From an uncultured delta proteobacterium (GTDB taxonomy: Bacteria > Desulfobacterota > Binatia > Binatales > Binataceae): DNA of 64,000 nucleotides. The stretch spans positions 516,722 to 580,721 of the forward strand of contig CAWDTQ010000015.1 of assembly GCA_963805315.1 (NCBI GenBank), in the 5' to 3' direction. Under the pieces are notes generated by a model. It worked only from the letters and a program-made list of their open reading frames with translations. It did no database searches and was not told the DNA's origin. Position numbers and translations under genes: made by a program. This document shows positions 6,757 through 52,127 of this stretch, in pieces. Positions within the stretch are counted from its first letter, which is position 1, and every line of letters starts with the position of its first letter.

Positions 6757-7522
6757 ATGGGAAATTTTGTTGTAACGGCCCGAGAGTCCCGTGCGCAGAC
6801 CAGGCAATCGGCGGGGCGGTCTGTGCCGGTGCCCACCAACAGAATAGCCATGATTTGGGACTCGGCGATCGGCAAGAAGGTCGTCATGGCGGTCACCGGC
6901 ATCGTTCTGGTCGGCTTCGTGATCGTCCACATGCTCGGCAATCTGAAGATTTTCGCCGGTCCCGACGAGATCAACGCCTACTCGCGATTCCTGCGGACGG
7001 TAGGCCAGCCCGAACTTGGCTATGGTGATGCGCTGTGGGTAGTTCGGATCGTCCTGCTCACCTGCGTGACGCTTCACATCACCGCCGCCTATCCAACTAA
7101 CGCGCATGAACTGGGCTGGCGAGCCGGTCGGATACGAAACCAAAGAGAGTATCGAGACGACTTTCGCCGCGCTCATGATGCGCTGGGGCGGCGTGCTTCT
7201 CGTCGATTTTCATTATTTTTCATATCGCGCATTTCACGCTGGGCGCGGTCGGGTTCAAGGCAGGACAGTTCAAAGACTGCCGTTTACCAAAACGTGATGG
7301 CCGGGTTCGCGGTATGGCCCGTCGCAGCTGTTCTACATCGTGGCGATGGGCGCGCTGTGCCTCCATCTCGACCACGGAATCTGGAGCATGCTGCAAACGC
7401 TCGGCTGGAGCACCGCCCGCAACACGAGGACGCTTAAGATCCTTTCACGGGTCATTGCCGTCGTCGTGTTTGTGGGATTCATATCCGTTCCGGTTGCGGT
7501 GATGACTGGTCTGGTGCACTAA
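6757..7522 (+). pseudogene. sdhC: Succinate dehydrogenase/fumarate reductase cytochrome b subunit (b558 family), frameshifted as sequenced
   Basis: Family-like segments are SAIGKKVVMAVTGIVLVGFVIVHMLGNLKIF, …PVGYETKESIETTFAALMMRWGG, VYQNVMAGFAVWP and ALCLHLDHGIWSMLQTLGW. They lie in alternating frames (1>2>1>2), which implies at least 3 frameshifts. An AGGAG RBS precedes the ATG at 6757. Confidence 0.8.
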
Positions 7523-7535
7523 CTTGGAGGCGAAC

Positions 7536-9450
7536 ATGTTGGAAGCCAGGATCCACAGGTGCCGATCGAGCAGCAGTGGGACAGATGTCGCTTCGAGATG
7601 AAACTGGTGAACCCGCTAACCGCCGCAAGCACTCGATCATAGTGGTGGGCGCAGGTCTGGCTGGCGCGGCGGCCGCCGCCACTCTCGGCCAGCAAGGCTA
7701 TCACGTCCAATGCTTTTCCTATCACGACACTCCACGCCGCGCGCACTCGATCGCCGCCCAGGGAGGGATCAACGCCGCCAAGAACTACCGCAACGACGGC
7801 GACAGCGTCTTCCGCCTCTTCTAAGGACACGGTGAAAGGCGGCGATTTTCGCGCGCGCGAAGCCAACGTCTATCGCCTCGCGCAAATCAGCCTCAACATA
7901 ATCGACCAATGCGTGGCGCAGGGCGTGCCGTTTGCGCAGCGAGTACGGCGGACTTCTCGACACGCGCTCGTTCGGCGGCGTGCAGGTCCAACGAACTTTT
8001 TACGCGCGAGGTCAGACGGGACAGCAGCTGTTGCTGGGGGCTTACCAGGCCTTGGAAGAGCAGTTGGCGGCCGGCACGCGTGACAATGCACATCCGCAGC
8101 GAACTGCTCGACGTGGTGATCGTCGATGGCAGAGCGCGCGGCATAGTGACGCGCGACCTGGTGACCGGGCAACATCGAGTGTCACGCCGCCGACGTAGTT
8201 GTGCTGGCAACGGGAGGATACTCCAACGTCTTCTATCTGTCGACCAACGCGAAGGCGTGCAACTGCACCGCCATCTGGCGCGCCCACCGCCGCGGCGCGC
8301 TGTTCGGGAATCCATGCTTCACCCAGATTCATCCGACTTGTATCCCGTTGAGCAGCGAGCATCAGTCCAAGCTGACGCTGATGTCGGAGTCGCTGCGAAA
8401 TGATGGACGCGTATGGGTGCCCAAGAAAAAGGGTGAAACGCGCGCTCCGAAGGATATCCCGGAAAACGAGCGCGACTACTATCTGGAGAGCCGGTACCCG
8501 AGCTTTCGGCAACCTCGTACCCCGCGACGTCGCATCGCGAAACGCCAAGGAAGTGTGCGATGAAGGCCGCGGCGTCGGGCCGCACGGGCAGGGCGTCTAC
8601 CTGGATTTCGCGGATGCCATTCACCGGCTCGGTCTGGAAACGGTTCGCGAGAAGTACGGCAACCTGTTCGACATTTACGAGCGGATCACAGGGGAGGATG
8701 CGTACACCGTGCCAATGCGGATCTATCCCGCTCCCCACTACACGATGGGCGGGCTGTGGGTGGACTACCACCTGATGTCGACCATCCCGGGGCTGTTCGT
8801 CGGCGGGTGAAGCGAACTTCTCCGATCACGGCGCCAACCGGCTCGGCGCCAGCGCGCTCATGCAAGGTCTCGCCGATGGCTACTTCGTTCTGCCGGCCAC
8901 CGTGCCCGACTACCTGGCAGCAACCAAATTGGATCCTGTGGATGTCTCGCATCCTGCGTTCGCGGCAGCCACGGCCGAAGTCGAGGAGCGCATCGAAAAG
9001 CTCCTTGCGATCAAGGGCAAACGCAGCCCCGATTCGTTCCATAGAGAACTCGGCAAAATTATGTGGGATGACTGCGGCATGGCCCGCTCAGATGCCGGAC
9101 TGCGCAAGGCGCTCGCCAGAATCCCGGAATTGCGCGAAGAGTTCTGGCACAACCTTCGTATCGTCGGCAGCGGGCGAGGAATTGAACCAGGCTCTCGAGA
9201 AGGCGAACCGCATTTCCGACTTTCTCGAACTCGCCGAACTCATGTGTATCGACGCGTTAGACCGCACAGAGTCGTGCGGCGGCCATTTCCGCGTGGAGAG
9301 CCAGACACCCGAGGGTGAGGCGAAACGAGACGACGCGAATTTCTCCTACACGGCGGCCTGGGAGTGGAAAGGGTTGGGTCAAGCGCCCGCCCTTCACAAG
9401 GAACCGCTCACCTTCGAGTACGTTCCCTCTCGCAAAGGAGTTACAAGTAG
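7536..9450 (+). pseudogene. sdhA: Succinate dehydrogenase/fumarate reductase flavoprotein subunit, about 10 frameshifts as sequenced
   Basis: Motifs are spread over all three frames: [87 protein letters not shown] and ESCGGHFR. Frame joins fall near 7553, 7615, 7822, 7938, 8079, 8173, 8507, 8807, 9173 and 9426. Confidence 0.85.
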
Positions 9451-9452
9451 CC

Positions 9453-10257
9453 ATGAATCTCACGCTCAGAATTTGGCGGCAGCAGAACGCAAACGCACGG
9501 CGGGCAGTTCGTCACCTATCAGGTGAAGGATGTGACGCGCGACATGTCATTCCTTGAAATGCTCGACGCACTCAACGAGGACCTGCTCGACCGCGGCAGG
9601 AGCCTCCCGTCGCCTTCGAACACGACTGCCGCGAGGGAATTTGCGGCTCGTGCGGATTTCTGATCAACGGTGTGGCCCACGGCGGCCAGCGCGGTACGAC
9701 AGTGTGCCAACTCTCGATGCGCTTTTTCAAGGATGGCGACTCGCTCACGCTCGAGCCGTGGCGCGCGCAGGCCTTCCCGGTGATCCGCGATCTGATCGTC
9801 AACCGCTCAGCATTCGACCGAATCATTCAAGCGGGAGGCTTCATCAGCGCGCCGACGGGAAGCGCTCCCGACGCCAACGCGATCCTGGTCCCAAAGGAAG
9901 CCGCAGATACGGCGTTCGACGCGGCCGCTTGTATCGGTTGTGGAGCCTGCGTCGCCGCCTGCCCGAATGCAGCCGCCATGCTTTTCACCTCAGCCAAAAT
10001 CACTCACCTCAACGCGCTTCCCCAGGGTCAGCCTCAGCGCGACCAGCGAACCGTCAGTATGGTGGCCGCGATGAAACGAACAGTTCGGCAGCTGCACGAA
10101 CCATGGCGAGTGTGAAGCGGTGTGCCCCAAGGAAATACCCCTGGAGTTCATCGGCAGGATGAACCGCGATCTGATTCGCGCAGTGACGCGTCGCCGCCGT
10201 GGGCCACTGGTTATCGCCGCCGTCGTGCAACAGCCATCTCACGAGGACATGCACTAG
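9453..10257 (+). pseudogene. sdhB: Succinate dehydrogenase/fumarate reductase iron-sulfur subunit, frameshifted as sequenced
   Basis: The segments [11 protein letters not shown]…, [36 protein letters not shown] and [18 protein letters not shown] are the 2Fe-2S, 4Fe-4S and 3Fe-4S Cys clusters. They are split over frames 0>1>0>1. An AAGGAG RBS lies upstream. Confidence 0.8.
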
Positions 10258-10309: not shown

Positions 10310-10366
10310 GATCCTGCCGCGCGGCGATCGCTCGGCCCCCTCCACCGCTTCGAACCAGGCCGTTCG
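10310..10366. repeat. 57-bp direct repeat, copy B (orphan copy of the lipoprotein gene 3' end)
   Basis: It would encode …ILPRGDRSAPSTASNQ, compared with …ILPRGDRAVLSTASN* at 5990-6046. There is no upstream gene body. Confidence 0.7.
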
Positions 10367-11585: not shown

Positions 11586-13270
11586 ATGGCGGGAAGTATC
11601 GACCACGAAATCGCTCTTGGCGCCGCCGACGATGTGGATTCGCTGCCGATCCTCGGCAAGCTTCACGAATGGGTCGTCACCGTCGATCACAAACGCCTCG
11701 GCATCATGTACATCGCGGGCGGCCTCTTCTTTTTCTGATCGCCGGCCTGCAAGCCGCGACGATTCGGCTTCAGCTCGCCGTTCCCGACGCCGGCATCGTG
11801 CCGCCGCAGGTATTCAATCGCCTGCTCACGATGCATGGCACGGCGATGGTCTTCCTGGTCGGGATGCCAATCCTCACCGGCTTCTTCAACTACCTGGTGC
11901 CGCTCATGATTGGCGCGCGCGACCTCGCCTTCCCGCGCCTCAACGCCTTCGGCTTCTGGCTGTGGTTCTTCGGCGCGATCCTACTCTACTTCAGCTATAT
12001 CGGCGGCGACGGTCTCTACGGCGCGGGCAGCGCGCCCGACGTCGGATGGTTCGCGTACGCACCGCTCACCGAGCTGCCGTTCTCGCGCGGCAACAGTACT
12101 GACTATTGGATACTGAGTATTTTTCTGACTAGCGTCGGCACGACTGCGACCGCCATCAACATAATCACCAGCGCATTCTGCATGCGATGCGAAGGGATGA
12201 CGCTCAGCAAGATGCCGGTGCTGGTGTGGCTGGCGGTGGTCGTCGCGTTCATGATGCTCGTCGCGTTGCCGCCGCTCTCGGCGGCGCAGGCGATGCTGCT
12301 ACTCGATCGCTTCCTCGGCGCGCACTTCTTCGACACTCAAGCGGGCGGCTCGGCAATACTGTGGCAGCACTTCTTCTGGATTTTCGGCCATCCCGAGGTT
12401 TATATCCTGGTCATTCCCGCTTTCGCTTTCGCCTCGGAGATCATCCCGGTGTTCTCGCGCAAGGTGATTTTCGGTTACAGCGTGATGGTGGCGGCGTCGT
12501 GCGCGATCGGGTTCATCAGCCTGAGCGTGTGGGCGCATCACATGTTCTCCGTCGGCATGACTCCGGCCGGCAACTCGTTTTTTGCCTTGTCCACGATGCT
12601 GGTCGGTGTCCCGACCGGCATCAAGATTTTCAACTGGCTCGGCACAATATGGGGCGGGAAACTTCGCTTCAAGGTACCGATGCTGTTCAGCCTGGGATTT
12701 CTCTTTCAGTTTCTAATCGCGGGCCTGACCGGCATCATGCTTGCCGTCGCACCCTTCGACTGGCAATTCACGGATACCTACTTCGTAGTCGCTCATTTCC
12801 ATTATGTACTAGTCGGCGCGATCGTCTTCATGGATTTCGCCGCTATCTACTATTGGTTCCCAAAGGCTACTGGCCGAATGCTCAGTGAGACTCTCGGTAA
12901 ATGGCATTTCTGGCTATTCCTGATCGGCTTCCATCTGACCTTCGATACTATGCATTTCGCGGGGCTGCGAGGGATGCCGCGGCGCATTTATACCTATCAG
13001 CCGGGGCGCGGACTGGAGACGCTCAACCTCATCGAGTCGATTGGAGCGCTGGTGCAGGGCATCGCCGTGCTCATATTAGTGATCAATGTTATACGCTCGC
13101 TCCGCTCCGGCGAAGCGGCCGGCAACGATCCCTGGGATGCGTGGACGCTCGAATGGTCCACGACTTCGCCGCCACCCGAATACAATTTCGCTGAGCCGCC
13201 AGTGGTGCGAAGTCGCCGCCCGCTGTGGGACCTGAAACATCCGGAAGATCCCGACTGGAAGTACGAATGA
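11586..13270 (+). pseudogene. ctaD: Cytochrome c oxidase subunit I, one frameshift near 11735 as sequenced
   Basis: The N-terminus (MAGSIDHEIALG…TVDHKRLGIMYIAGGLFFF*) is in frame 0. The rest (LIAGLQAATIRLQLA…WFFGHPEVYILVIPAF…HHMF…FHYVLVG) is in the frame of ORF 11138-13270. The join is at ttctttttctg. The Arg-rich first ~200 aa of the track ORF are out-of-frame read-through over ctaC and the ctaD 5' end. Confidence 0.9.
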
Positions 13271-13285
13271 ACCGGAGCACTTCTA

Positions 13286-13889
13286 ATGGCCGCCGCAGCG
13301 ACCGCAATCCCCGCACCCGCCGCAGCATGGAGCGAAACCCTCCCGCGACGAGGCCGCGTCGGCATCCTCGCACTGATCCTCACCGAGTCCGTCTTCTTCT
13401 CGATCTTCGTCGTCGCCTACATCTTCTATCTCGGCAAAAGCCTGACGCGGCCCGTTTCCCAAGGACGTCCTCTCACCTCCGATTCTCAACACGATCTGCC
13501 TGCTCTCGAGCAGCATCACGATCGTCCTCGCGATCCGAGCGCTTCGCGCCGGCTCGATTCGCACGTTTGCGATCTGGTGGTTCATCACCTTCGCGCTCGG
13601 CCTCGAATTCCTGACCGGCACTGCGCTCGAATGGCATCGACTCATCTACCACGACGGCCTTACGATTCGGACTAACCTCTTCGGAACTACCTATTACTCA
13701 CTCGTCGGTCTGCACGCGCTGCACGTTACTGTCGGCTTACTACTTATCTTGCTCGTGCTGATACTGACTATGTGCGGTTACATGAACGACCGTCACGTCG
13801 AGCGAACTGATGTTCTCTCATGGTATTGGCACTTCGTGGATGCGGTCTGGGTAGTAGTATTCCTGACCGTGTACGTGATCGGTCGATGA
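13286..13889 (+). pseudogene. ctaE: Cytochrome c oxidase subunit III, one frameshift near 13450 as sequenced
   Basis: GILALILTESVFFSIFVVAYIFYLGKS is in frame 2. …ICLLSSSITIVLAIRA…LEFLTGTALEWHRLI…TTYYSLVGLHALHVTVG…WYWHFVDAVWVVVF is in frame 0 and ends at TGA 13887-13889. Confidence 0.8.
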
Positions 13890-13898: not shown

Positions 13899-14867
13899 AT
13901 GGCTATTCAGGAAAATACCGACAGAGTAATCGAAGCTCCCGCACCGACCGCGTGGCCGATGATCATGGCGCTCGGCTTGACGCTCGCCTTCGCCGGCCTG
14001 GTCACCAGCATCGCGGTCAGCATGGTCGGCTTCGTTCTCTTTGTCGCGGGCGCCGTCGGATGGTTTCGCGAGGTGCTGCCGGTCGAGCATCGCGAGACGG
14101 TTCGCGTCGAGCCCGCCGTGGAAGCCATCATCCCCGCAAAAATCGGCGTCGACTACCTGCAGGTCGGCGAGCTGGGCAATCGCGCCGTTCTTCCGCTCGA
14201 AATTTATCCCTACTCAGCCGGAATCAAAGGTGGCATCGCGGGCGGCGTCGCGATGGCGGTCCTCGCCGTGCTGCAGGGTATCGCCCTTCACGGCAGCCCC
14301 TGGTACACCGTCAACATTCTCGCCGCGACCGCGATGGCTAATCTCGCCAACGCCGACACCGCCACGCTCTCGTCGTTCATTCCGCAGGCATTCGTCGTCG
14401 CGCTGATCATTCACGCCTCCGCTTCAATACTGGTTGGACTGCTCTACGGCGTGATGCTCCCGATGTTCCCGCGCTACCCCGCATTGTGGGCCGCGATCGT
14501 CGCGCCGCTGCTGTGGACCGGCCTGCTCTGGTCGTCGCTCAGCGTGATCAATCCGCTGCTCGACGCCCGAATCGAGTGGCGATGGTTCATCTTGTGCCAA
14601 ATCGCATTCGGCGCCGTCGCGGGGTTCGTCGTCAACCTGACCGAGCGCGTCCATACGATGCAGCATCTCCCGTTCGCCGTCCGCACCGGAATCGAGGCGC
14701 CCGGCCTCGGCGAGAAACGCGAGGACGAGGATCAAGTTGAACGCGCGCAGGCTGAAATCGCTCCTCGCGAGCGCATCGCTGGCGACAATTCTGCTCGCCG
14801 GATGCGATTCACTTCCCGGCCGTCCCACCCAGGCCGATTTTCCGCTGCGTCCTTCCGACGTGACTGA
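13899..14867 (+). CDS. Polytopic membrane protein of unknown function embedded in the oxidase operon
   Basis: 322-aa ORF with several hydrophobic helices (WPMIMALGLTLAFAGLV, MVGFVLFVAGAVGWF, GIAGGVAMAVLAVLQGIAL, ALIIHASASILVGLLYGVMLPMF, …). The 3' end is uncertain because it overlaps the next gene by ~130 nt. Confidence 0.5.
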   Translation: MAIQENTDRVIEAPAPTAWPMIMALGLTLAFAGLVTSIAVSMVGFVLFVAGAVGWFREVLPVEHRETVRVEPAVEAIIPAKIGVDYLQVGELGNRAVLPLEIYPYSAGIKGGIAGGVAMAVLAVLQGIALHGSPWYTVNILAATAMANLANADTATLSSFIPQAFVVALIIHASASILVGLLYGVMLPMFPRYPALWAAIVAPLLWTGLLWSSLSVINPLLDARIEWRWFILCQIAFGAVAGFVVNLTERVHTMQHLPFAVRTGIEAPGLGEKREDEDQVERAQAEIAPRERIAGDNSARRMRFTSRPSHPGRFSAASFRRD

Positions 14868-15449
14868 CTTCGCAACACTGTACGGCGAGAATTGCGCGGG
14901 ATGCCACGGAGCCGACGGCAAGTCCGGCGCCGCGATCGCGATGAACAATCCTGTATATCTCGCGATCGTCGACGACGCTTCGATGCGCCGCGTGATCGCC
15001 GGCGGAGTTCCGGGTACCGCGATGCCGCCGTTCGCGCAAAGCGCCGGCGGTTCGCTGACTGATCGTCAGATCGACATCTTGATTGCCGGCATCCGCAAAA
15101 CTTGGACAGGCGCTCCCGGAGCGGGTGCGGGCGCCCCGCCCTATTCCAGTTCCACTGCTGGCGATTCGAATCGGGGCGCGCAGGTGTACGCGGCGAACTG
15201 CCAATCGTGTCACGGCCCCGACGGCAAGGGAGGACGGCAGCCGGTTCTGATCGTCGATGCGTCCTACCTTGTCGCTCGTCAGCAACCAGTACCTGCGCAC
15301 GATCGTGATCGCGGGACGCCCCGATCTCGGCCATCCCGATTGGAAGAACGACGTCGCTGGACAACCGCTGACGCCTCGAACAAGTGTCCGACGTGGTCGC
15401 ATGGCTCGCTTCCAAACGTCCCGCGCCACCGCTGGCTCAGAGCAATTGA
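14737..15449 (+). pseudogene. Dihaem c-type cytochrome lipoprotein, frameshifted as sequenced
   Basis: Signal peptide and lipobox (ATILLAGC). Two CxxCH motifs (CAGCH, CQSCH). After ~15245 the family-like sequence (SLVSNQYLRTIVIAGRPDLGHPDW…, …VVAWLASKRPAPPLAQSN*) continues in other frames. Confidence 0.7.
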
Positions 15450-15450
15450 A

Positions 15451-15962
15451 ATGACGCACAACTCCCGAAAAGACTACACGCCGCAATTTCCTCTTTCGTA
15501 TCGGAATAGTCATTAACGCAATAGCTATTGCGCTTGTTCGCAATACCAATTGTCGGCTACGTACTATCGCCCGCCCGGCGCTTCACCTGGCTCGACTGGA
15601 TACCGCTCGGTCCGCTGACTGACTATCCGGAACATCAGACGCGACTGGCCGAGTATGTAAACCCGTTCAAGAAAGCATGGGACGGCGAGACGGCAAAGAT
15701 TCCATGCTGGGTGCGACGCCTCGCCGGCGACCAATTCCAGGTCTTCGCGATCAACTGCACCCATCTGGGATGCCCGGTGCGATGGTTCGCCGAATCGGAA
15801 CTGTTCATGTGCCCGTGCCACGGCGGCGTTTTCTACTCCGACGGCAGGCACGCGTCGGGACCTCCGCCGCGCCCGCTGTATCAATACAAATACAAAGTCG
15901 AGGCCGGCAAACTTTGGATTTACGCCGGCCAATTGCCGACGCTGGGCCAGCCGCACGCATGA
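15451..15962 (+). pseudogene. Rieske 2Fe-2S subunit of a bc-type complex, N-terminal frameshifts as sequenced
   Basis: CTHLGCPV…CPCHGGVF Rieske motifs lie in ORF 15528-15962. A Tat-like leader (MTHNSRKDYT-RRNFLFRIG…) is recoverable only by switching frame twice between 15451 and 15540. Confidence 0.8.
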
Positions 15963-17429
15963 TCGAAGTCCTCAAATCAGTCGGGCCGATGGCTCGACGC
16001 TCGTCTGCAACTCGGCCAGACGATCGCCGACGTCGCCGCGCATCCGGTGCCGCGCAGTTCCGCGAGCTGGTGGTACATGTTCGGCAGCGCGACGCTCGTC
16101 GTTTTCATTTTGCAAGTAGTCACTGGCATCTGCCTCGCGACTGTCTATACGCCGGCCGCCGATCGCGCCTGGGACAGCCTGATCTATTTGAATTACCAAC
16201 AGCCGCTCGGATGGTATCTGCGCGCGCTGCACGGCTGGGGCTCCAACTTCATGGTCGCCCTGATGTTCGTGCACCTGATCCAGGTGTTTCTGTTCGGCGC
16301 GTACAAGTATCCGCGCGAACTCACCTGGGTCGCAGGATGCGTACTGCTTTTGTGCACGCTCGGCATGGCGTTCACCGGCCAGGTGCTGCGCTTCGATCAG
16401 AACGCATACTGGGGTCTGGGCATCGGCGCGTCGATCGCCGGACGCACTCCGATCATCGGCTTCAAGGTCGTCGATCTGATTCTCGGCGGACCAATCATCG
16501 CCGGCGAGACCTTGTCGCGATTCTTCGCGCTGCACGTATTCGTGATTCCGGCTCTGCTGATCGCCTTCGTCGGCCTGCATCTCTTCTTGGTATTGCGACT
16601 AGGCATTAACGAATGGCCGATGCCTGGTCGAATAGTCAGACGCAATAGCTACTTGCGATGAGTATAGTGAGTTAGTACACGCCGACGGCGAGCCGTTCAT
16701 GCCATTCGCGGCGCAAAAGGATCTCGTCTTCGCCGGACTGATTATCTTGAGCCTGCTCGTAGTCGCCGCCGTCGAAGGCCCGATCGGTCCCAACGGCCAG
16801 CCCGATCCGACGATCATCCAGACCGTTCCGCGCCCCGACTTCTTCTTCCTGTGGCTATTCTCGCTGTTCGCATTGTTGCCGCCATGGACCGAGACCTTCC
16901 TGATGCTCACCGGTCCGGTCGCCGTCATCGCGCTGCTCTTCGCGCTGCCCTTCATTTCGGGAACCGGCGAGAAGAGCTGGCGTCGACGACCCATCTCAGT
17001 CGTGATCGTTATTCTCGCCGTGACGATCGTCGGAACTCTCACCTGGCTCGGGACATTCTCGCCGTGGTCGCCAGTGATGGACGCGTGGAGCGCCGCACCG
17101 ACGCCCGTCGACTACGTCAAGGGCCGCACTCCGCTGGAACTTCAAGGCGCGTTGCTCGTGCAGAGCAAGCAGTGCCGCAACTGCCACTCGCTCGGCGGCG
17201 TAGGCGGGATGCGCGGTCCCGCGCTCGACGACACCGCGACGCGGCTCACGCGCGACCAGATCGTTCGCCAGATAATTCAAGGTGGCGGCAACATGCCGGC
17301 CTACGGCAAGAATCTCACGCCCGCGGAGGTCAACGCGCTCGTCGCGTTCCTCGCCACGATGCATCCGCGCGGGCGAGCCTCCCGCGCGCGATTCGGCGCG
17401 ACCCGCCGCTCACCGAGTCATCGCAGTGA
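15959..17429 (+). pseudogene. Cytochrome b (N- and C-terminal halves) fused to a C-terminal mono-haem cytochrome c domain, about 3 frameshifts as sequenced
   Basis: WWYMFGSATLVVFILQVVTGI…LHGWGSNFMVALMFVHL is cytochrome b. The apparent stop at 16659 is bypassed by removing one c at ~16656, which gives …YLDEYSELVHADGEPFMPFAAQKDLVF… The C-terminal domain carries CRNCH…GGGNMPAY. The predicted end TGA 17427-17429 overlaps the ctaG GTG (GTGA). Confidence 0.8.
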
Positions 17430-18319
17430 ACTCTCTAATACAAACCGCCTTCGATTCGTGGACGCCGCCTGTCGCCACGATCGCGACGCTGCTCGTCACC
17501 GCCGCGATTTACGCGCGCGGGTTCCGTCGCCTGCATCGCCAGATGCCGCGACGCTTCCCCGTCTGGCGACTCGCGACGTTCATGGCCGGGATTGCGGCGC
17601 TCTTCGTCGCGATCGCCTCGCCGCTCGAGGAGCTCGACGACCTGCTGCTGCAAATTCACATGACGCAGCATCTCATTCTGATGATGGTCGCGCCGTCGCT
17701 CATGCTCGCGGGCGCTCCGGCGATTGCGCTCGTGCGCGGGCTGCCTCCGCGCATTGCCAAGGCGATCGTCGGACCGCTTCTCCGCTCAAGCGCGGTGCGA
17801 CGCCTCTTCGCATGGCTGACGCAGCCGCTGGTATGCTGGATCGCATTCGTCGCCGCGACCTGGGGATGGCATCTGCCCGCCACCTTTCAGCTCGCGCTCC
17901 GCTCCGACGGATGGCACGTCGTCGAGCACGCATGCTTCTTCACCACCGCGCTGATGTTCTGGTACCCGGTCATCCAGCCATGGCCGAGCGCCGCGCGATG
18001 GCCGCGATGGGCGATGATTCCGTATCTGCTGCTCGCCGACGGGCAGAACACCATCCTCGCCGCGCTGTTCATGTTTTCCGATCGGTTGATCTATCCTTTA
18101 TATGCGACCGCGCCGCGCGTCGCGGGTTTCACTCCGCTTGGCGACCAGATTGTCGCCGGTGCTATCATGTGGGTGCCCGGCTCGATTTTCTATCTCGTGC
18201 CCGCCACGCTCATCATGTTTCAGATGCTCGCGCCGCAAAATCTCTCGCGCCAATCCGCGCGCGAAGATGACATTCATCGCCGAGTCGCCGGCGAACTTCC
18301 AGCGGCGCCGCATCTGTAG
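17426..18319 (+). CDS. ctaG: Cytochrome c oxidase assembly factor CtaG (caa3_CtaG family membrane protein)
   Basis: [23 protein letters not shown]…[21 protein letters not shown]…[21 protein letters not shown]… is typical of the Bacillus-type CtaG family. The GTG at 17426 is in frame with ORF 17282-18319. Confidence 0.75.
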
Positions 18320-18330
18320 AAGGAGGCATC

Positions 18331-19968
<1,638 letters not shown>

Positions 19969-36065: not shown

Positions 36066-36067
36066 CG

Positions 36068-38244: not shown

Positions 38245-38311
38245 TTTCGCATCCTGCCAATCGCGTGGTCATTTGAAGCGCTACAAAGCATTGAATCCAA
38301 AAGGGTTTTGA

Positions 38312-38385: not shown

Positions 38386-38639
38386 GCCGAGAGATTCCCA
38401 TGCTTACAGGGAATTCGAAGCGTTGGAAATAGACACGACTCGGAGGCCGTTCCGCAACCCTGCGCGTCTGAGATAAATTAGAGGCCGGCCGCGGGCGGAC
38501 GGAACTGGGCGGGAGGACGACGACGTGCAAGATGCGGAGCGGAGCGAAGCGGACGGCAGCCTGGCGCATGAAAATCCACCACTGAAAAGATCGAAGCGGG
38601 AAACCGCGGACGCGCCGACGCTCAAGCCGCCCGCCGTCG

Positions 38640-40170
38640 ATGTCGTTATTCCGCTATTCCCCGGGACTGATACTTATTTCCATCGCGATCGCCGATTCGA
38701 TTCGGCGGCCGGATCCGGATTTGTGGGGTCACGTTCGTTTCGGTCAGGACTGTCTTGAGCCTGCATCACCTGCTGCTGCACGATACCTTACTCCTATTCG
38801 GCCGCCGGGCATACTTGTACGACCACGAATGGCTCACCGATGTACTGTTGGCGGCAGTCTTCAACCATGCCGGCGTCTTCGGACTCATCCTGCTGAAACT
38901 CGCGTGCACTGCGGTCGTGATCCTTGCGCTCGCGGCAGCGATGGCCGAGACCGACTCGTCGACCCTGGTTCAATTTGCGGTTCTGATCGGGTCGGCGGTG
39001 GTGATCAAGCCGCAAATGCAGTTTCGTCCGCAATCATTCACGTTCGCGCTGTTGGCGGTGCTGATTTACCTGCTTACACGCGATGCTTATCGGCGGACGG
39101 GACGGCTATGGCTGGCGATTCCGATACTTGCGCTGTGGGCGAATCTGCACGGCGGATTCATCATGGGCATCGCCGCGCTCGGCACTTACAGCGCCGTGTC
39201 GGGATTGCAGGATGTCATAGCGGGGCGCGGCTACCGTCGAGCGATAAGACTCGCGGCAATCACCGGCGCGGCGATCCTCGCGACGCTGGCGACGCCGTAT
39301 GGATTCGGGACGTGGCAGGCCATCGCGCACGCGTTGCGCAATCCATACACACGCGTCGTGATCGTGGAATGGCAGCCGCTCGTATCGGCGGCGATCGAAC
39401 ATTGGCAACAGCACAGGTTTCGTGATCTCGAACTATGACATCGGGATCGCGATGATCGCGGCGACCGCCATTTCGTGGGCGTTGACGATCGAGGCCGACC
39501 GATTTGCCGCTGTTTGCGATCGCCGCGGTGATGGCGATAGCGGCGTTCATTTCGACCCGCAATCTTCCGATCGCGATGATCGCGCTGGCGGCGCCGCTTG
39601 CGCGTCATGCGCCGCGGGCGTGGCAAAAGATGGTGCCTGCGAGGGCAGCGCGCAGAGCCGCAACAGCCCTCAGGATGGCTTAACCAGGCGATTCTGATCG
39701 CGCTGTCGATCGTGATTTTCGTTCAAGGCGGATTCTTCTCGCGCTCGCTGACATCGCCCGACCCGTACCCGGCCAGCGCATGCGAATTCATGAAGCAGCA
39801 CCATCTTCGGGGCAACATCCTGAACACATTCCAATGGGGCGATTACCTGATCTGGCACACCGCGCCGGAGTCCAAGGTGTTCATCGACGGCCGTTACGAT
39901 ACGGTCTTCCCGCTCGAAAGTCATCTACAAGTTCGCTTTGTTCAATTATCAATTAGCCGGGCGGCGCCGCGATTCTGAGCGAGTATCCGTCCGACTTCGT
40001 CCTGATCAAGCCGGATTCCCGATGCGCGAGCGGTGATGGACACGCAGGCGGACTGGAAACTGATCTACCAGGATGCGGTGTCGCGGCTCTACGCGCGACA
40101 AGACTCGGCGGCGGCGCAAATAGCAGGAGTTCCGGTGACAGGCGTCGCGCAACCCGGCCGGTTCCCGTAG
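38640..40170 (+). pseudogene. Large polytopic membrane protein (possible glycosyltransferase-like), about 4 frameshifts as sequenced
   Basis: Hydrophobic segments are spread over ORFs 38640-39425, 38755-39438, 39422-39697 and 39598-39978, plus the tail …DWKLIYQDAVSRLYAR…. The motif LWANLHGGFIMGIAALG is present. The family was not recognised with confidence. Confidence 0.45.
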
Positions 40171-40190
40171 TCGCGGGTGGGCGAGTTCGG

Positions 40191-45008: not shown

Positions 45009-46136
45009 TCACTTCGACGCCATCAACTCGGCGCGCGGGTCGGCAATCCCGCGCTCCTTCAGGCTATCGGCCAACTGCTGCATCAGCGCGCGCTCTTTGG
45101 CGGTCAAATCGGTCGGTGCGAGCACCTTCAGTTCGTACAGCAGGTCTCCGGCCGGCTCCTTGCCGCGCGCAGGCAGTCCGCGCCCGCGCAGCCGCATCAC
45201 GCGTCCGGTCTGGCTGCCGGCGGGAATCTTGAGCGACACCCGCCCGTCGACAGTCGGCGCCGTAATTTCGCCGCCCAGCACCGCTTCGTAGTCCCACACC
45301 GGCAGACTGACGCGCAGGTCGCGGCCTGCAATCGCGAACACCGGGTTCGGTTCGAGTCTGATGGTCAGAAACAGATCGCCATTCTGATCGGGTCGCGGTG
45401 CGCGGCCGCCCTGCCCCTTCAGTCGCAACTGCGTGCCGTCCGAGACGCCCGCCGGGATTGTTACTTCGAGCGTGCGCCGCGCCGCGACCACGCCGCTTCC
45501 GCCGCAGGTCGGGCATTGTTCCGCGGAGCGAATCACGCGCGCCTTACCCTGCTTCTCCTCGCGCGCGATCATCCCGCTGCCGCCGCAGGTCGCGCATTCG
45601 TCCTCGGCGACCAGATCGAGCCGCCGCTTCGCGCCCTTGATTGCATCGACCAGCGTGATTCCGACCTCGGCGCGCAAGTCGGGCGCGCGCGCCGGCTCCG
45701 TTCCGAAGTCGAACCTGGAAAAGCCCCGCGACGCGCCGCCGCGACTTCGTCCGCCGGCGCGCTCAAATCCGCCGCCACCGCCGCCGCCGAAGAATTGTGA
45801 AAAGAAATCGCTGAAGTCGCCGCCGCCAAAATCCGCACCCGCGCCGCGGCCCGCGCCGGCCGCCGACTGTTGCCGCGCATAGCGGCGCATCATCTCTTCC
45901 TGCGACACGCCATGCTCCCAGTCCGCGCCCAGCTCGTCGTACTTCTTGCGCTTCTCGGGATCGCTGATGACCTGGTAGGCCTCGTTCAGTTCCTTGAACT
46001 TCGCCTCGGCCTCCTTGTTGTTCGGATTGACGTCGGGATGGAACTTGCGGGCGAGCTTGCGATACGCACTTTTGATTTCCGCGTCGCTCGCCTTGCGTTC
46101 CACGCCGAGCACTTTGTAGTAATCGCGAAATTCCAT
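45009..46136 (-). CDS. DnaJ-class co-chaperone (CbpA-like; only two CxxCxGxG motifs)
   Basis: J domain ([33 protein letters not shown]), a G/F-rich linker, and the motifs CATCGGSG and CPTCGGSG. Confidence 0.9.
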
Positions 46137-46168: not shown

Positions 46169-46399
46169 TCAGTGGCTATAGTTACTTACTATGCTCGAAT
46201 AGCCACTCACGCATCGGAAGGCGGCCGCGGCTGCGTTGAGTGCCGTCGACGCCTGCGTCAGCGCCGCCATCCGCGCCTCCATCGCGCGAAGTTCCGCTTC
46301 GAGCGCCGCCTGGCGGCGCCAGATGAACACGACATAAAGGAAGATCGCCGCGAAGATGATGCTGTAGGCGGCGAACAGGTAGCCGAGATTTTCCATCAA
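46169..46399 (-). CDS. ccmD: Haem exporter protein CcmD
   Basis: (M)MENLGYLFAAYSIIFAAIFLYVVFIWRRQAALEAEL…. It lies directly downstream of ccmC. The C-terminal tail is unusually long. Confidence 0.6.
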   Translation of the reverse strand: MMENLGYLFAAYSIIFAAIFLYVVFIWRRQAALEAELRAMEARMAALTQASTALNAAAAAFRCVSGYSSIVSNYSH

Positions 46400-46408
46400 T
46401 CAATTCCA

Positions 46409-47124
46409 TTATTTGTTATCGGACGCGGCCGCGATCGCGAACGCGATCCTCACCGCCAATTCGCCCATCCGGCTGCGCGTCCGCAACTGCGTGAATCGAA
46501 GCATCAGCAGCCAGGCCCACAACGCCGTGAACGCGGCCATCGACACCAGCAGCGTCGCGACCATCCGCGGGTCTTCCAGGCCGTGTCCGCCCTGCTTCGT
46601 CACCAGCACCGCGGGATGAATCGTGCGCCAAAGCCGCACGGACGCAATGACTATCGGCACATCGAGCACCGCGATGATTCCGATCACCGCCGCGAAGCGC
46701 GCGGTCTGCGGCGTGTCGTCGGCGATCGCGCGCAGCATCAGGTAGCCGCCGTACATCAGCCACAGGATGAAGGTGGTCGTGAGCCGCGAGTCCCACGTCC
46801 ACCACGTGCCCCAAATCGGCTTGGCCCACATCGAACCGGCGACAATCATCAGCGTGCAGAAGACCATTCCGGTTTCCGCCGCGGCGTAGCCGAGGTCGTC
46901 CCACATTTGATCGCCGAGCCACAGGTAAAATATTCCCGCGATCGCGACCAGCCCGAACGCCGCAAACGCGACCCATGCGCAGCGGCACATGAAAATAGAA
47001 AATCCGCTGCGCGATTCCCTGGTTCGGCTTCGGGCGGTACATAGTCGAAGACCATGAACAGCGCCGCGATCATCAGCGCCAGCGTCATGTAATCCCAGCC
47101 AGTTGCGAATTGCGTGTTGTTCAT
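46409..47124 (-). pseudogene. ccmC: Haem exporter CcmC, about 2 frameshifts as sequenced
   Basis: The WGTWWTWDSRLT (WGxxWxWD) motif is in ORF 46409-47149. N-terminal parts (MNNTQFATGWDYMTLALMIAALF…, …RIFYFHVP…) lie in two other frames. Confidence 0.85.
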
Positions 47125-47145
47125 GCTTGCTACCAAATCGTGTCG

Positions 47146-47816
47146 TCAATCCTCACCGACCACATACTCGAACAGCAGGTAACCGGCGGTGACGAACAGC
47201 ACGTCGAACGCGATCAGGATCTTGAGCCAGTCGCCCATCGCGGCAAGCGGCGCGCCCGACAGCGCCGCCGCGCTCGCCTTGACGCCGGCAATCAACGCCG
47301 GCACGAACATCGGCACGGCGAGAATCGGCAGCAGCATATCGCCGCCGCGAGTGCGTCCGGTGATCGCGGCGAGCAGCGTCGCCAGCGCGGAGAATCCAAG
47401 CGCGCCGAGCACCAGGATCGGCGCCAGCCGCGCGACCGACGGCGTCGAAATCGAGATTGAAGAACAGCGCCATCAGGATGACGGCGGCGACCTCGGCAAT
47501 CGCCATGAAGATCAACGCGGCGGCAAGCTTCGCGGCGTAGAGCGTCGCGGGATCGAGCGGGCTGAGCAGCAGCCCGCGAATGCGCCGTTGTCGCGCTCCG
47601 CGAGCATCGCGCGAGTCGCGCCGAGCATCCCGGCGAAGACCATCGCGACCCACAGCGCGCCCGCCGCCGCGTCGACGCTGCGCACGCGCGCTGCGTCAGC
47701 GCGAACACCAGCACCACCAGCATCAGCAGCGAGAGCGCGAGCAGAGCCAGCGTGCTCTCGCCGCTGCGAAGCTCGAGGCGCAGGTCCTTGCGCAGCACTG
47801 CGGCAAATCCCGACAC
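47146..47816 (-). pseudogene. ccmB: Haem exporter permease CcmB, frameshifted as sequenced
   Basis: The segments (V/M)SGFAAVLRKDLRLELRSGES…, …LLLSPLDPATLYAAKLAA.LIFMAI… and …LPILAVPMFVPALIAGVKA… lie in 3 frames. Confidence 0.75.
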
Positions 47817-47867
47817 TGCTTTTACCTGCCGAGCAGCGAGCGTAATCGCCCGCGCCGGACCTCCTCC

Positions 47868-48525
47868 TTATGCTCGCGCGCGGCAGCAGCCGGCCGCGCG
47901 AGATTTCGAACACCGCGAAATCGACGCCGTCGATTTCGGGGACCGCATGCGCGGTTGCTATCACCGAGGCGCCGCGTTCGACCGCGCCGCGAATCAAGCC
48001 CGCGACGATTTCGGCGCCGTCATGATCGAGCGACGCAAACGGCTCGTCGAGCAGCAGCAGCGTCGGGATCCGCCAGCATCGCGCGCGCCGCTGCCAGCCG
48101 CTGCTCCATCCCGCGCGAGAACGCGCGCACGCGGGTCTTCCGCAACGTCGGCAAGTCCGACCCGGCCGAGCCATTGCTCCGCTGACGCGCGCGGGTCGCG
48201 AATTGAATAAAGCTCGGCGTAGAATTCCAGGTTCTCGCGCGCGGTCAGATTCGGGTAGAGGAAACTCCGATGCGCCATCAGTCCGATTCGGCGCCGATAG
48301 CGCGCGGCGAGCCTGCGGCGTGTCCTGTCCGAAGACGAGCGCGTGGCCGGCGCTCGGCGCCTCGAGCCCGGCAATGATTCGCACCAGCGTGGATTTCCCG
48401 GCGCCGTTGCCGCCGACGATAAATACGCCCGCGCCCGGCATCACACGCAGATCCACGTCGCGCAGCACGGGCGCCAGACCGTAAGTCTTTGCCAGCCTGT
48501 GAGTCTCGACGATCGGCGCCGCCAT
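47868..48525 (-). pseudogene. ccmA: Haem exporter ATPase CcmA, frameshifted as sequenced
   Basis: Walker A (GGNGAGKSTL), then …IGLMAHRSFLYPNLTARENLEFYA… in an alternative frame, then Walker B (LLLLDEPFASLD). The proposed stop TAA at 47868-47870 is followed by an AAGGAGGAGG RBS. Confidence 0.8.
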
Positions 48526-49097
48526 TACTCGGTCCGGGCGATGGCGCCGGGAATCGGTTTGATCGCGATACCGCATTGCGCGCAGAACTTCGAATCGACG
48601 GCGGCGCGCGTCCCGCATTGCGGACAGAAGCGCATCTTGCTCGATGCCGACGACGGCTGCGGCTGCTGCGGCGGTGGCGAGGCTGGCGGCGTCCGCGGCT
48701 GCTCGATGTGCAAAACCATAGTCGCCATTTCGGTACTGCGAGGCAGCGGCGCGGGTCGGCGCGGCGCCGGCGTCAGCGTTGTGACCGTCGCCTTCTTCGC
48801 GCTCACGGCCTTGTCGCTTGGCGCGCGAAGATTCTCGACCGCGGCCATCGCGGTCAGCGCTCGATCCTCGAGCGCTTTGTGCATCGATTCGTAGTCGGCG
48901 TCGGACAGCTTGCCCATCTCGCGATCGAACTCGAGTTCGCGCAGACCCTGCACCGCAAGCGCGCGCTCATGCTCGTGGCGCTCGACCTGCAGCTCGTCGG
49001 CCGACTTCGCGCGCGCTCCGACGAGCCCGATACCGAGCGGCGCCGCGACGAACAGCGCGACGCCGGCGATGATCAACGCTGCGGCCAGGATGAACAC
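48525..49097 (-). CDS. Membrane-anchored protein with C-terminal zinc ribbon (ccm operon member of unknown role)
   Basis: N-terminal TM helix (MFILAAALIIAGVALFVAAPLGIGLV), a charged helical region, a Pro-rich linker, and the zinc ribbon RFCPQCG…FCAQCG. Confidence 0.5.
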   Translation of the reverse strand: MFILAAALIIAGVALFVAAPLGIGLVGARAKSADELQVERHEHERALAVQGLRELEFDREMGKLSDADYESMHKALEDRALTAMAAVENLRAPSDKAVSAKKATVTTLTPAPRRPAPLPRSTEMATMVLHIEQPRTPPASPPPQQPQPSSASSKMRFCPQCGTRAAVDSKFCAQCGIAIKPIPGAIARTE

Positions 49098-49100
49098 CGG

Positions 49101-49631
49101 TTATCTGCGCTCCTTGAGTTCTTTTTCGAGTTTGCGCCTGAGCTCGGGATCGAATGCCGCCGACGCCGCGTCCGGCTTCGAGTCAGACGGCGCTGACGGT
49201 GCCCTGGAATGCCATCGCCCGACCGCCAGCGCCATCAGGCCGCCGCCGAGCGCCAGCGCGATGAACGGCATCGTCCACGCCAGCAGGTTGAAGCCCTCGG
49301 TGGTCGGCGCTGAAAGAACTTTCTCGCCGTACTCCCGCCGATAGAAGGCGATTATCTGCGCGCGAGTCTTGCCCTCGCCGATCATCCGATCGATTTCGCG
49401 GCGCATCGGCACTGAGAAACCGCAAGTCGGCATATTGCAGTTGGCGACCGTCAATCCGCAGCCGCATTGGCAGGTCAAACCCTCGGAAACCTGCGAATTC
49501 GTTGGAGTTTCGGCTGCGAATGTTTCACGTGAAACGTTTTTTAGTTCAGGAGAAAGAAAAACGAATAGCGCCGCGGCGAGGAAGATGAGCGACGACGCGA
49601 GTGTGAGTTGCGCACGCACAGCCCTAGTCAC
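49101..49631 (-). CDS. ccmH: Cytochrome c-type biogenesis protein CcmH/NrfF-like
   Basis: …LTCQCGCGLTVANC…MRREIDRMIGEGKTRAQIIAFYRREYGEKVLSAPTTEGFNLLAWTMPFIAL… follows the CcmH pattern, with a C-terminal TM helix. Confidence 0.75.
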   Translation of the reverse strand: MTRAVRAQLTLASSLIFLAAALFVFLSPELKNVSRETFAAETPTNSQVSEGLTCQCGCGLTVANCNMPTCGFSVPMRREIDRMIGEGKTRAQIIAFYRREYGEKVLSAPTTEGFNLLAWTMPFIALALGGGLMALAVGRWHSRAPSAPSDSKPDAASAAFDPELRRKLEKELKERR

Positions 49632-51650
49632 CTCCGGGCGCCGCGACGTCGGCGAGTTCCGGCATCTCGGTCGATGAGCGGCTGAGCGCGGACGCGATTG
49701 CGGCGCGCTCGCGCACGTTCGGCCACATTACTATCACCGTGCCGAGCACCATCATCAGGCCGCCCGCCCACAGCCAGAACACCAGCGGCGTCAGGAATAC
49801 TTCGAAGGTCGCGGTCTGTCCGTCGTCGTCGATTCCGGCGAGCACGACGTAGAGGTCGCTCAGCGGCGTCGAGCGGATCGCGACTTTGGTCGCGGGCTGC
49901 TGCGGACGCTTGAAGAACAGCTTCGCCGGCGACATCACGGTGATTTCGCGGCCGTCTGAGCTCAGCACCTGGACGCGCGCGGTCGCGCTCTCGAGATGCG
50001 GCGTGTCGGTCTCGTACAGACCCTGGAAGCGCAGCGTGTACGAACCGATCGTGAAGCTGTCGCCCGCGTGCACGCTCTTTTTCACTTCGGTGCGAAAGAA
50101 CGACGAGCCGACAATTCCGATGAACGCGACGATCACGCCGACGTGGATGATATAGCCGCCGTAGCGGCGGTTGTTCTTGGCCACGAGATTGACGAGCGCC
50201 TTGGCGCGCGGCTCGGCGACCATGTGGCGGCGTGCATTAACCCCGCGGCGAAACTCGACGAGCACGGTGCCGAGCACGAACGCGGCCAGTGAGAACGCAG
50301 TCAGCACATACCATTGTCGGAGGCCGGCGACGGCGGCGACGATTCCGGTCGCGACGCCGATCGTTACGGGCGCGGCGAAGCTTCGTACGAGATTGTCAGC
50401 GGTCGTGCGTCGCCACGCGATCAGCGGCCCGATCCCCATCAGGAAGACGAGGCCGAGCGCCAGCGGTCCGTTGACGCGATTGAAGAACGGAGGTCCGACG
50501 GTGATCTTAACGCCGCGCACCGCTTCCGACAGCACCGGAAAAATCGTGCCCCAGAAAACTGCGAATGCGATCCCGACCAGCATCAGGTTGTTGAACAGGA
50601 ACGCCGCTTCGCGCGACAGGTACGATTCGAATTCGGCGGGACTGCGCAGTTCGCTTCGAGCGGAAAATCAGAAGCGCGGTGTAGGCGAGGGTCACCGCTA
50701 TCAGGAAGCTGAGAAAATATGGGCCGAGGCCGGACTGCGTGAACGAATGCACCGACGAGATGACGCCGCTGCGCGTGATGAACGTGCCGAAGAGCGTTAG
50801 TCCGAACGCTAGTCCGATTAGCGAGAGGTTCCAGACCTTCAGCATGTCCTTGCGTTCCTGGATCATCACCGAATGCAGATACGCCGTCATCACCAGCCAC
50901 GGCATGAATGCTGCGTTCTCGACCGGGTCCCACGCCCAGTAACCGCCCCAGCCCAGCACCTCGTAGGCCCATCGCGCGCCGAACATATTGCCGAGCGTGA
51001 GAAAGAACCACGAAAAAATCGCCCAGCGGCGCGTCGAGCGAATCCATCCGTCGTCGAGTTTGCCGGTGATCAGCGCGGCGGCGCCGAATGCGAACGGCAC
51101 GGTCGCGCTGACGTAGCCGGTGTAGAGACGACGGCGGATGAATCGCCATCCAGTAGTTCTGCAGCAGCGGATTCAGGTCGGAGCCTTCGGCGGGAACCGC
51201 CGCGAGCAAATCGAATGGACGCGTGACGAAGTTCAGCATCAGCAGAAAAAAGATCGCGACGCCCGCGAGCACCGCGAGCGCATACGGGGCGATCTCGGGA
51301 TTACGGCGGCGATTCTGGAACGCGGCGATCGACGTGAAGATCGACAGCAGCCACGTCCAGAACAGCAGCGAGCCCTGCTGCCCGCCCCATAGCGAGGTGA
51401 TTTTGTAGACGGTGGGGAGCGTGGTGCTGGAATACGCGGCGACGTACTCGAGCGAGAAGTCGCTGCGAAGAAGCGCGACCCACAGCACGACGACCGCGAT
51501 CGTGACCATCGCGCACATCGCCCAAATCGCGTGGCGGGCGCTAACGACGAAATCGGGCGAATTGCGGCGCGCGCCGTAGATATTCGCGACGATGGAATAG
51601 ACGGCGAGAATCAGCGCGATCGCGAGCGCGAGGTTGCCAAGTTGCGGCAT
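49624..51650 (-). pseudogene. ccmF: Haem lyase CcmF, at least 2 frameshifts as sequenced
   Basis: MPQLGNLALAIALILAVYSI…SLWGGQQGSLLFWTWLL… is in the ORF 50583-52127 frame. …WAYEVLGWGGYWAWDPVENAAFMPWL… is ORF 50507-51100. The C-terminal third is ORF 49624-50583. Confidence 0.85.
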
Positions 51651-51664
51651 CAAAAAAACCCGCT

Positions 51665-52127
51665 CTATTGTGATTGCTTGGGCTTGTACTTGGAAGGGCA
51701 GCTCGTGAGCACCTGGGTCGCGGCTATGGCGCCGTCGGCGCCGAGCTTGCCTTCGACAATAACGTCGCGGCCGGGCGCGAACATGTCGGGCTTGGGCTCG
51801 CCGGCAGCATACGACGCGGAACGAGACGGGATCGGACGCGACATCGGATGCCCCTGCGGAAACGGGTTTGACGGCGGCAGCGTCGACGTCGGGAATCGGC
51901 ACGATTTCAAATTTGAGGGTGAGCGAGTTCGGGTCCCAGTTGATGGTGTCCGGCTTCACGCGGCCGGCTACGCGGATCGCCTGTCCGCCGAGCTCGCTTT
52001 GGCGCGCGGCCACCTCGGGTACGGTCAGGTAGTACTCGGAGGTGGTGCGAATCGCACTGAAGATAAGGTATCCGATGGCGGCGGCGATCAGGCCGACGCC
52101 AATGAAAAATCGCGGACGGATTCGCAT
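51665..52127 (-). pseudogene. ccmE: Haem chaperone CcmE, Cys-variant (CxxxY), one frameshift as sequenced
   Basis: MRIRPRFFIGVGLIAAAIGYLIFS…AIRVAGRVKPDTI…FRVV joins the second frame: YAAGEPKPDMFAPGRDVIVEGKLGADGAIAATQVLTSCPSKYKP. The haem-binding position reads CPSKY instead of HxxxY. Confidence 0.8.

Follow-up and report, generated by a model that had tools for sequence, protein, structure and literature searches.

Clustered frameshifts in respiratory and cytochrome c maturation genes of a Binataceae genome assembly probably reflect residual consensus errors

In a 64,000-nucleotide stretch of the Binataceae assembly GCA_963805315.1 (4.25 Mb, 16 contigs, labelled C1, C2 and so on; the stretch, hereafter the window, is C15:516722-580721), genes for aerobic respiration and cytochrome c maturation are interrupted by many frameshifts, and so is mobile DNA. 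This raises the question of whether the organism has lost these functions or whether the assembled sequence is wrong. The original prediction, made from the letters of the window, offered both readings: uncorrected long-read indels, or a very recent inactivation of real genes. The estimated completeness of the assembly is 87.7 %, compared with 89-98 % in 11 of 12 genomes of the same genus and 85 % in the twelfth, which lies in 530 contigs.

Frameshifts in the window were counted by frameshift-aware protein-to-DNA alignment against intact orthologues from the same genus, with genome G006 as the reference for sdh and genome G009 for cta and ccm. At the DNA level, sdh was aligned to G006 and the cta region to G009; the ccm genes were compared through protein references. 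As a second, independent caller we ran a home-made codon-usage HMM on the window and on the whole assembly. Genome-wide, the upstream frame had to stay open for more than 45 nt beyond a switch; the resulting count is a lower bound, and the detection bias of the caller between insertions and deletions was measured. A metric based on short same-strand frame switches was dropped because it gave false calls in operons made up of short genes, the ribosomal-protein operon on C12 among them.

Table 1. Features of the window, in window coordinates, and the frameshifts found in them
Feature	Position	Strand	Observation
57-bp direct repeat, left copy	5990..6046	+	Repeat search; second copy 88 % identical
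sdhC-sdhA-sdhB	6757..10254	+	17 one-base frameshifts: 13 insertions, 4 deletions
57-bp direct repeat, right copy	10310..10366	+	G009 synteny match begins exactly at 10310
ctaD and ctaE	11586..13886	+	Deletion at ~11735, insertion at ~13447-13449
Dihaem cytochrome c, Rieske and cytochrome b	14710..17422	+	6 net frameshifts, all insertions
Clean stretch: downstream ORF and pgi	17423..19965	+	0 frameshifts
Integrated element, 14 kb	24292..38354		At tRNA-Lys; perfect 43-bp direct repeats at both ends
Core membrane-protein gene	38591..40173	+	85 % identical to G009; frame changes at 39396, 39498 and 39636 (HMM)
dnaJ-like gene	45012..46136	-	Clean; adjoins riddled ccmC
ccmC-like, ccmB-like and ccmA-like	46398..48528	-	11 frameshifts, 5.2 per kb
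ccmH-like and ccmG-like	48528..49619	-	0 frameshifts
ccmF and ccmE	49627..52127	-	ccmF insertions at 50652 and 51127; ccmE insertion at 51808

Where about 16 frameshifts had been predicted in sdhCAB, alignment to G006 gave 17 (4 in sdhC, 10 in sdhA and 3 in sdhB), at 7094, 7203, 7279, 7328, 7553, 7618, 7823, 7941, 8080, 8174, 8505, 8803, 9173, 9427, 9499, 9603 and 10078. The one frameshift expected in each of ctaD and ctaE was recovered in alignment to G009 (Table 1), and the stretch also has an intergenic deletion at 13280. The dihaem cytochrome c, Rieske and cytochrome b genes are broken as predicted, with 2, 1 and 3 net frameshifts (15267, 15373, 15534, 15983, 16660 and 17371) instead of the seven or eight claimed; the DNA alignment to G009 additionally revealed a deletion and an insertion that compensate each other (15240/15250) and one insertion between genes, at 15458, and 15240-15534 holds seven indels in 300 bp. 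The ccm genes proved broken at 14 sites, not about 10 (ccmE 1, ccmF 2, ccmA-like 4, ccmB-like 3, ccmC-like 4), with those of ccmCBA at 46415, 46978, 47021, 47091, 47439, 47581, 47697, 47878, 48066, 48136 and 48317.

The same alignment found no frameshift in ccmG, ccmH, pgi, the gene for a 278-aa membrane protein or the dnaJ-like gene. In the genes that had been called intact, long ORFs match Pfam domains over their full length (secretin, RcpC/CpaB, MFS, sigma-54 EBP, GT2, epimerase, MoeA, SLT, histidine kinase and iGluR-like). The HMM independently recovered the junctions listed in the prediction, at 7821, 7938, 8079, 8166, 8505, 8808, 9168, 11730, 16656 and 36885, and its three frame changes in the membrane-protein gene at 38.6-40.2 kb agree with the claim that this gene is broken. 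Over the 19.9 kb for which references were available, the uneven split is indeed improbable under a uniform rate (G = 44.9, df 7, p = 1.4e-7).

Compared with G009, G007 and G012, two of the riddled blocks are insertions: the sdh block, which synteny showed to be missing from the matching locus of all three, and the tRNA-Lys island. The sdhCAB genes are an accessory second succinate dehydrogenase/fumarate reductase operon. The operon of G006 is intact and 87 % identical in DNA to the window copy, which between its shifts retains 91 % amino-acid identity to G006 and has no in-frame stop in sdhCAB; in the DNA alignment with G006, the sdhC-sdhA spacer carries an indel as well. The only other sdh/frd operon, at C15:255223-257668, is a paralogue, 36 % identical and intact. 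The island lies between 43-bp repeats at 24292-24334 and 38312-38354, with the tRNA-Lys at 38312-38385, and contains an integrase, TerL and a BsoBI-like restriction-modification pair, with many ORFs fragmented. It was predicted that nearly every island gene is broken; in the part of the island that was checked, the methylase matches its family profile only as a fragment, the better of two family-matching stretches of the endonuclease ORF covers only the last 135 of 313 profile positions, and the TerL ORFs overlap in different frames. Four HMM frame changes (32088, 32175, 32592 and 36885) were also found there.

We then asked how the window compares with the whole assembly. The HMM called at least 816 confident same-strand frame switches in 611 genes, a density of 0.19 per kb that is a lower bound. 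About 15 % of all genes are affected, whatever their function; the rate is alike on all large contigs, and at least 30 clusters resemble those of the window. The claim that the damage is confined to respiratory, ccm and mobile genes thus fails genome-wide, where identical lesions strike genes of every kind. In frr, with its junction at about 80350 on C2, positions 2-34 of NCBIfam profile TIGR00496 match in one frame and 35-176 in the next, and tsf, with a junction at about 78990 on C2, is split across frames in the same way, with contiguous NCBIfam profile coordinates. Consecutive segments of topA, at C1:86758-89025, match TIGR01051 positions 1-70, 83-358, 361-438, 440-535 and 538-630, with 5 frame changes; the rho match ends at profile position 343 of 415 and resumes in another frame; and fusA and uvrA are interrupted where contigs begin. 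For frr, tsf, topA and rho, the assembly has no other copy.

The lesions are of a narrow kind. As predicted, indels far outnumber substitutions, with 39 frameshifts against 1 in-frame stop in the window genes, and constraint is unchanged: relative to G009, dN/dS is 0.07 for ctaD, 0.07 for ctaE, 0.14 for the cytochrome c, 0.03 for Rieske and 0.09 for cytochrome b among the broken genes, and 0.10 for ctaC, 0.10 for the 278-aa protein and 0.06 for pgi among the intact ones. The window has 31 one-base insertions and 9 deletions, mostly outside homopolymers. Genome-wide, 613 insertions were called against 203 deletions, on 16 of 16 contigs, a ratio of about 2:1 once detection bias is corrected. Length changes beyond single bases in the DNA alignments are short indels of 2-12 bases, mostly intergenic or near gene starts.

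The frameshift load also differs between assembled copies of the same locus, by 10- to 20-fold for duplicate loci. A duplicated locus has 1.95 per kb at C4:7986-16709 and 0.10 in its C14 counterpart; density is 2.9 per kb over the initial 1.7 kb of C12 and 0.6 in the overlapping end of C11; and it is 1.5 per kb over the final 1.3 kb of C11 and 0 in the C12 copy. Contig ends (within 5 kb) are modestly enriched, at 0.29-0.38 per kb versus 0.18 per kb. GC content was considered as a cause and set aside: density climbs with GC, from 0.03 to 0.48 per kb, but this is partly a detection bias of the codon model, and the GC content of the sdh block is average. Confinement of the clusters to accessory DNA was likewise rejected, as topA, the rho-tsf-frr region, ccmCBA and the cytochrome c/Rieske genes are core genes. 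Searches for an independent assembly of the same species gave nothing closer than a relative: with the SdhA protein of G006 the best matches were about 88-89 % identical to the window in the compared part of sdhA (8.5-9.4 kb), an exact look-up of the window Pgi returned no record, and JGI metagenome contigs scanned for Pgi relatives reached 84 % identity at most.

Taken together, the indel-only spectrum and the unchanged dN/dS back the reading of uncorrected long-read indels. The frameshifts are very probably consensus errors, mostly spurious one-base insertions, left in a metagenome assembly that was built from or scaffolded with long reads, and the affected genes are most likely intact in the organism itself. 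Raw PacBio reads carry ∼8 % insertions and ∼3 % deletions, and localized intra-population heterogeneity can render parts of metagenomic data "unpolishable" (proovframe preprint, 10.1101/2021.08.23.457338); further papers on indel errors in long-read MAGs are Sereika et al. 2022 (PMC9262707) and Cusco et al. 2021 (PMC8103633). The genome-wide background of about 0.2-0.3 per kb rises locally to about 5 per kb, where the consensus would be poorly supported, and the clusters may be stretches of low or mixed read support in which self-polishing or short-read polishing failed. Such stretches could include strain-variable insertions, for example the island at tRNA-Lys and the sdh block between its repeats, as well as contig ends and places where strains ∼94 % identical were co-assembled and would interfere. 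That two riddled blocks are repeat-bounded insertions would fit a poor consensus over strain-variable, low-coverage DNA. On the other hand, nothing obvious would make coverage poor over the core genes ccmCBA, cytochrome c/Rieske, topA and rho, and clean genes lie a few hundred bases from riddled core genes.

It is very improbable that indels truly disabled aerobic respiration and cytochrome c maturation in this lineage in the very recent past. The broken genes of the window do share a functional theme, rearrangements set the window apart from the relatives, in whose genomes the ccm block sits elsewhere, and the ccmE, ccmF, ccmB and ccmC genes are single-copy, no second copies having been found in the assembly. 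However, their functional coherence arises because the window is mostly a respiratory gene neighbourhood, a sampling effect, and frr, tsf, topA, rho and fusA carry the same insertion-biased frameshifts. Bacterial mutation is generally deletion-biased, opposite to the bias seen here. Two paralogous cta-type oxidase clusters (C11:174-177 kb and C14:350-356 kb) are also still intact; oxidases of this type require c-type cytochromes and, through them, the ccm system. Since the same damage is found in single-copy essential genes and the load is tied to the assembled copy, a loss of respiration is unsupported.

A mixed case, in which the error background is joined by real decay of the dispensable tRNA-Lys island (24292-38354) and the second sdh operon (6047-10309), is unlikely, although integrated elements often decay, both blocks are insertions, and the intact paralogous sdh/frd operon means that the window copy could be lost without harm. 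Against it, the sdh lesions share their signature with the artefacts seen in essential genes, and seventeen independent indels without a nonsense mutation or a large deletion are unlike pseudogenes. A few lesions, such as some of those in the island or the accessory sdh operon, may nevertheless be real despite the error background. Recoding, in which programmed ribosomal frameshifting or an unusual rule of decoding would carry translation across the shifts, is scarcely credible. The coding signal does carry on across every shift, and nothing else speaks for recoding. Against it, neither a slippery motif nor a shared context was seen among the 24 aligned indels, the shifts go in both directions (+1 and -1), intergenic DNA has indels too, and at the corresponding positions the orthologues of five relatives keep their frame.

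The pattern resembles the indel errors of long-read and hybrid MAGs, in which one-base indels split genes into adjacent ORFs lying in separate frames and lower the estimated completeness; the density of such errors depends on coverage and local strain heterogeneity, and they can be corrected with reference proteins (10.1101/2021.08.23.457338). It differs from older Nanopore data, where homopolymer deletions are typical, in consisting mainly of insertions outside homopolymers, and from the usual errors of long-read MAGs in its strong patchiness, with densities that range between 0 and 5 per kb within a few kb. Its many interrupted genes and intact paralogues also recall mass pseudogenisation, as in Mycobacterium leprae and recent host-restricted symbionts, but there essential genes stay intact and here they are broken. 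Genuine pseudogenisation brings a mixture of nonsense, frameshift and deletion lesions, relaxed constraint and an excess of deletions, none of which was encountered here.

Pseudogene counts, metabolic reconstructions and pangenomes that include this assembly need frameshift-aware gene calling or re-polishing, and the patchiness of the errors may mark strain-variable or poorly covered segments in long-read MAGs. The chief value of the finding is as a warning, the broken genes being in all probability not a real feature. Taken at face value, the assembly indicates an apparent loss of cytochrome c maturation along with a succinate dehydrogenase, a bc-type complex and a haem-copper oxidase, and such an annotation would wrongly suggest an anaerobic or degenerating lifestyle.

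Frameshifts in the window were counted by frameshift-aware protein-to-DNA alignment against intact orthologues from two same-genus genomes: G006, which has an intact sdhCAB operon (87 % DNA identity to the window operon), and G009, in which the cta and ccm regions are intact and collinear (86–89 % identity). As listed in the table, the frameshifts were clustered, as the original prediction had described (unevenness G = 44.9, df 7, p = 1.4e-7). The junctions it listed were recovered by a codon-usage HMM without a reference, and the genes it called intact gave full-length Pfam matches; of the genes it called broken in the island, the integrated element at tRNA-Lys, part were checked, and their fragmentary Pfam matches agreed with breakage. 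DNA alignment to G006 showed 12 small indels in the first 1.9 kb of sdh, mostly single extra bases outside homopolymers, and alignment to G009 showed further indels, with 7 packed into 300 bp.

Features, positions and frameshift counts (window coordinates unless a contig, C, is named)
Feature	Position	Frameshifts	Observation
Tandem 195-bp duplication, 86 % identical	4441-4635, 4680-4873		beside cpaB/cpaC pilus genes; may be two small pilin genes
57-bp repeats around sdhCAB	5990 and 10310 (5990-10366)		3' end of a lipoprotein gene
poxB-N-terminus/malic-enzyme chimera	6169-6741		upstream of sdhC; G006 has a poxB fragment downstream of sdhB
sdhC / sdhA / sdhB		4 / 10 / 3	closest to G006 (87 %); flanking core DNA closest to G009 (89 %), itself without the block
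ctaD / ctaE		1 / 1	
Dihaem cytochrome c / Rieske / cytochrome b		2 / 1 / 3	
ccmE / ccmF		1 / 2	
ccmA-like / ccmB-like / ccmC-like		4 / 3 / 4	
pgi, 278-aa membrane protein, dnaJ-like, ccmG, ccmH		0 each	
Further indels (alignment to G009)	15240/15250; 13280, 15458		compensating pair; intergenic
MFS gene to sigma-54 activator gene	22492-42216		inverted relative to G009:C6:1479732-1487659, collinear with G007
tRNA-Lys element	24292-38354		14 kb; perfect 43-bp repeats at both bounds
Island cargo	24636-26946		includes a restriction endonuclease of the BsoBI family (Pfam PF09194, E = 1.5e-53) adjoining an N6/N4 DNA methylase fragment
REP/MITE-like element, ~100 bp	44612-44700, 52136-52310, 55280-55390		copy number in the dozens to hundreds (85-98 % identity) in 4/4 same-genus genomes searched; found on both sides of the ccm block, whose genomic location differs in G009, G007, G012 and G006
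186-bp direct repeats, 90 % identical	57630-57815, 61392-61577		around the 983-aa ORF
983-aa ORF	58333-61284		no Pfam match
Intact sdh/frd operon	C15:255223-257668		
Intact cta-type oxidase clusters	C11:174-177 kb, C14:350-356 kb		
Redundant pieces of the bin	C11:315488-322000 / C12:1-6503; C8:18997-31912 / C14:928509-941482; C4 / C14:91-101 kb; C5 / C7:58-77 kb		strain- or species-variant copies, 80-95 % identical; C11 and C12 ends overlap, left unmerged

The assembly to which the window (C15:516722-580721) belongs (4.25 Mb in 16 contigs, 61.5 % G+C) has an estimated completeness of 87.7 % and contamination of 3.5 %; completeness is 89–98 % in 11 of 12 same-genus genomes and 85 % in the remaining one (530 contigs). 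Protein search, exact look-up and a metagenome scan turned up no second, independent assembly of this species. Run over the whole assembly, the HMM model used for the window gave 2,394 direct same-strand frame switches, past which the open length of the upstream frame was bimodally distributed. Some 1,040, with at most 12 nt open, were ordinary gene boundaries, and a confident frameshift was defined by an old frame open for >45 nt, which gene boundaries do not give. By this definition there were 816 confident frameshifts in 611 genes (123 with at least two), at 0.16–0.25 per kb on every large contig, or ~1,100 events after correction for measured detection probabilities. The events were over-dispersed (variance-to-mean ratio 2.1 in 5-kb bins), and a looser initial caller that also picks out short-gene operons found at least 30 window-like clusters. 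The same HMM finds lesions assembly-wide; contrary to the original prediction, they are not confined to genes for respiration, ccm or mobile DNA.

Essential genes are broken too, by frameshifts of the same kind as the window's. The frr gene is split, with NCBIfam TIGR00496 positions 2–34 in one frame and 35–176 in the next; tsf has the same kind of split; topA changes frame five times (TIGR01051 positions 1–70, 83–358, 361–438, 440–535 and 538–630); rho falls out of frame at position 343 of its 415-position profile; and fusA and uvrA are broken near the starts of contigs. Searching the assembly by tblastn gave no further copy of frr, tsf, topA or rho. Free-living bacteria would not be expected to live without ribosome recycling factor, EF-Ts and topoisomerase I. 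Since frr, tsf and topA are not plausibly dispensable, their frameshifts must be absent from the organism itself. The original prediction had also asked whether intact second copies of broken window genes exist: there is one for sdh, but it is only 36 % identical; the cta-type oxidase has two intact paralogous clusters; and ccmE, ccmF, ccmB and ccmC proved to be single-copy.

Redundant strain-variant pieces are present within the assembly, and the genome is a mix of related populations. Where the end of C11 overlaps the start of C12 (6.5 kb, 94 % identity), 26 indels of one or two bases and 3 longer ones separate the copies. Along the opening 1.7 kb of C12, frameshifts riddle the C12 copy (2.9 per kb versus 0.6 per kb in the C11 copy). 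Along the final 1.3 kb of C11 the loads are reversed, at 1.5 per kb in the C11 copy and 0 in the C12 copy; here rplD, rplW and rplB are intact in the C12 copy and shifted in the C11 copy. Contig C4 carries 1.95 per kb versus 0.10 per kb in its counterpart on C14. Because loads differ between copies of one locus, whether a gene is broken or whole is set by the consensus that is read.

Two readings of the clustering had been offered, assembly artefact and recent biological inactivation, and the type of lesion bears on both. As had been noted, indels far outnumber substitutions: the window has 39 frameshifts versus 1 in-frame stop codon, and sdh has 17 independent indels in 3.5 kb with no nonsense mutations. 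One-base insertions (31) exceed deletions (9) in the window; across the genome, insertions account for 613 of the 816 confident events, a ratio of ~3:1 on every one of the 16 contigs that drops to ~2:1 once their easier detection is corrected. Raw PacBio reads have about 8 % insertions versus 3 % deletions (proovframe preprint, 10.1101/2021.08.23.457338). The sdh spectrum is the residue of a consensus from insertion-prone reads, not a mutational one. Comparison with G009 gave no sign of relaxed constraint: dN/dS was 0.03–0.14 in broken genes (cta, cytochrome c, Rieske, cytochrome b) and 0.06–0.10 in the intact ctaC, 278-aa protein and pgi.

Two riddled blocks are discrete insertions: both the tRNA-Lys element and the sdh block are bounded by repeats, and the sdh block is missing from this locus in G009, G007 and G012 and occurs in only 2 of 13 same-genus genomes, the source genome counted. 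Discrete insertion segments are often present in just part of a population, and such partial carriage would lower or mix the read support there. Localized intra-population heterogeneity can make parts of metagenomic data 'unpolishable' (10.1101/2021.08.23.457338). Other clusters sit in core genes (ccmCBA, cytochrome c/Rieske, topA and the rho-frr region), and lesions are modestly enriched at contig ends. One guess that would suit the near two-state pattern (0 versus about 5 per kb) is that a long-read draft was polished unevenly with short reads. Taken together, these data strongly support the reading that the frameshifts are very probably an assembly artefact. We reject biological inactivation, apart from a slight remaining chance of it in the accessory blocks; the clustered frameshifts are not a biological feature of this organism.
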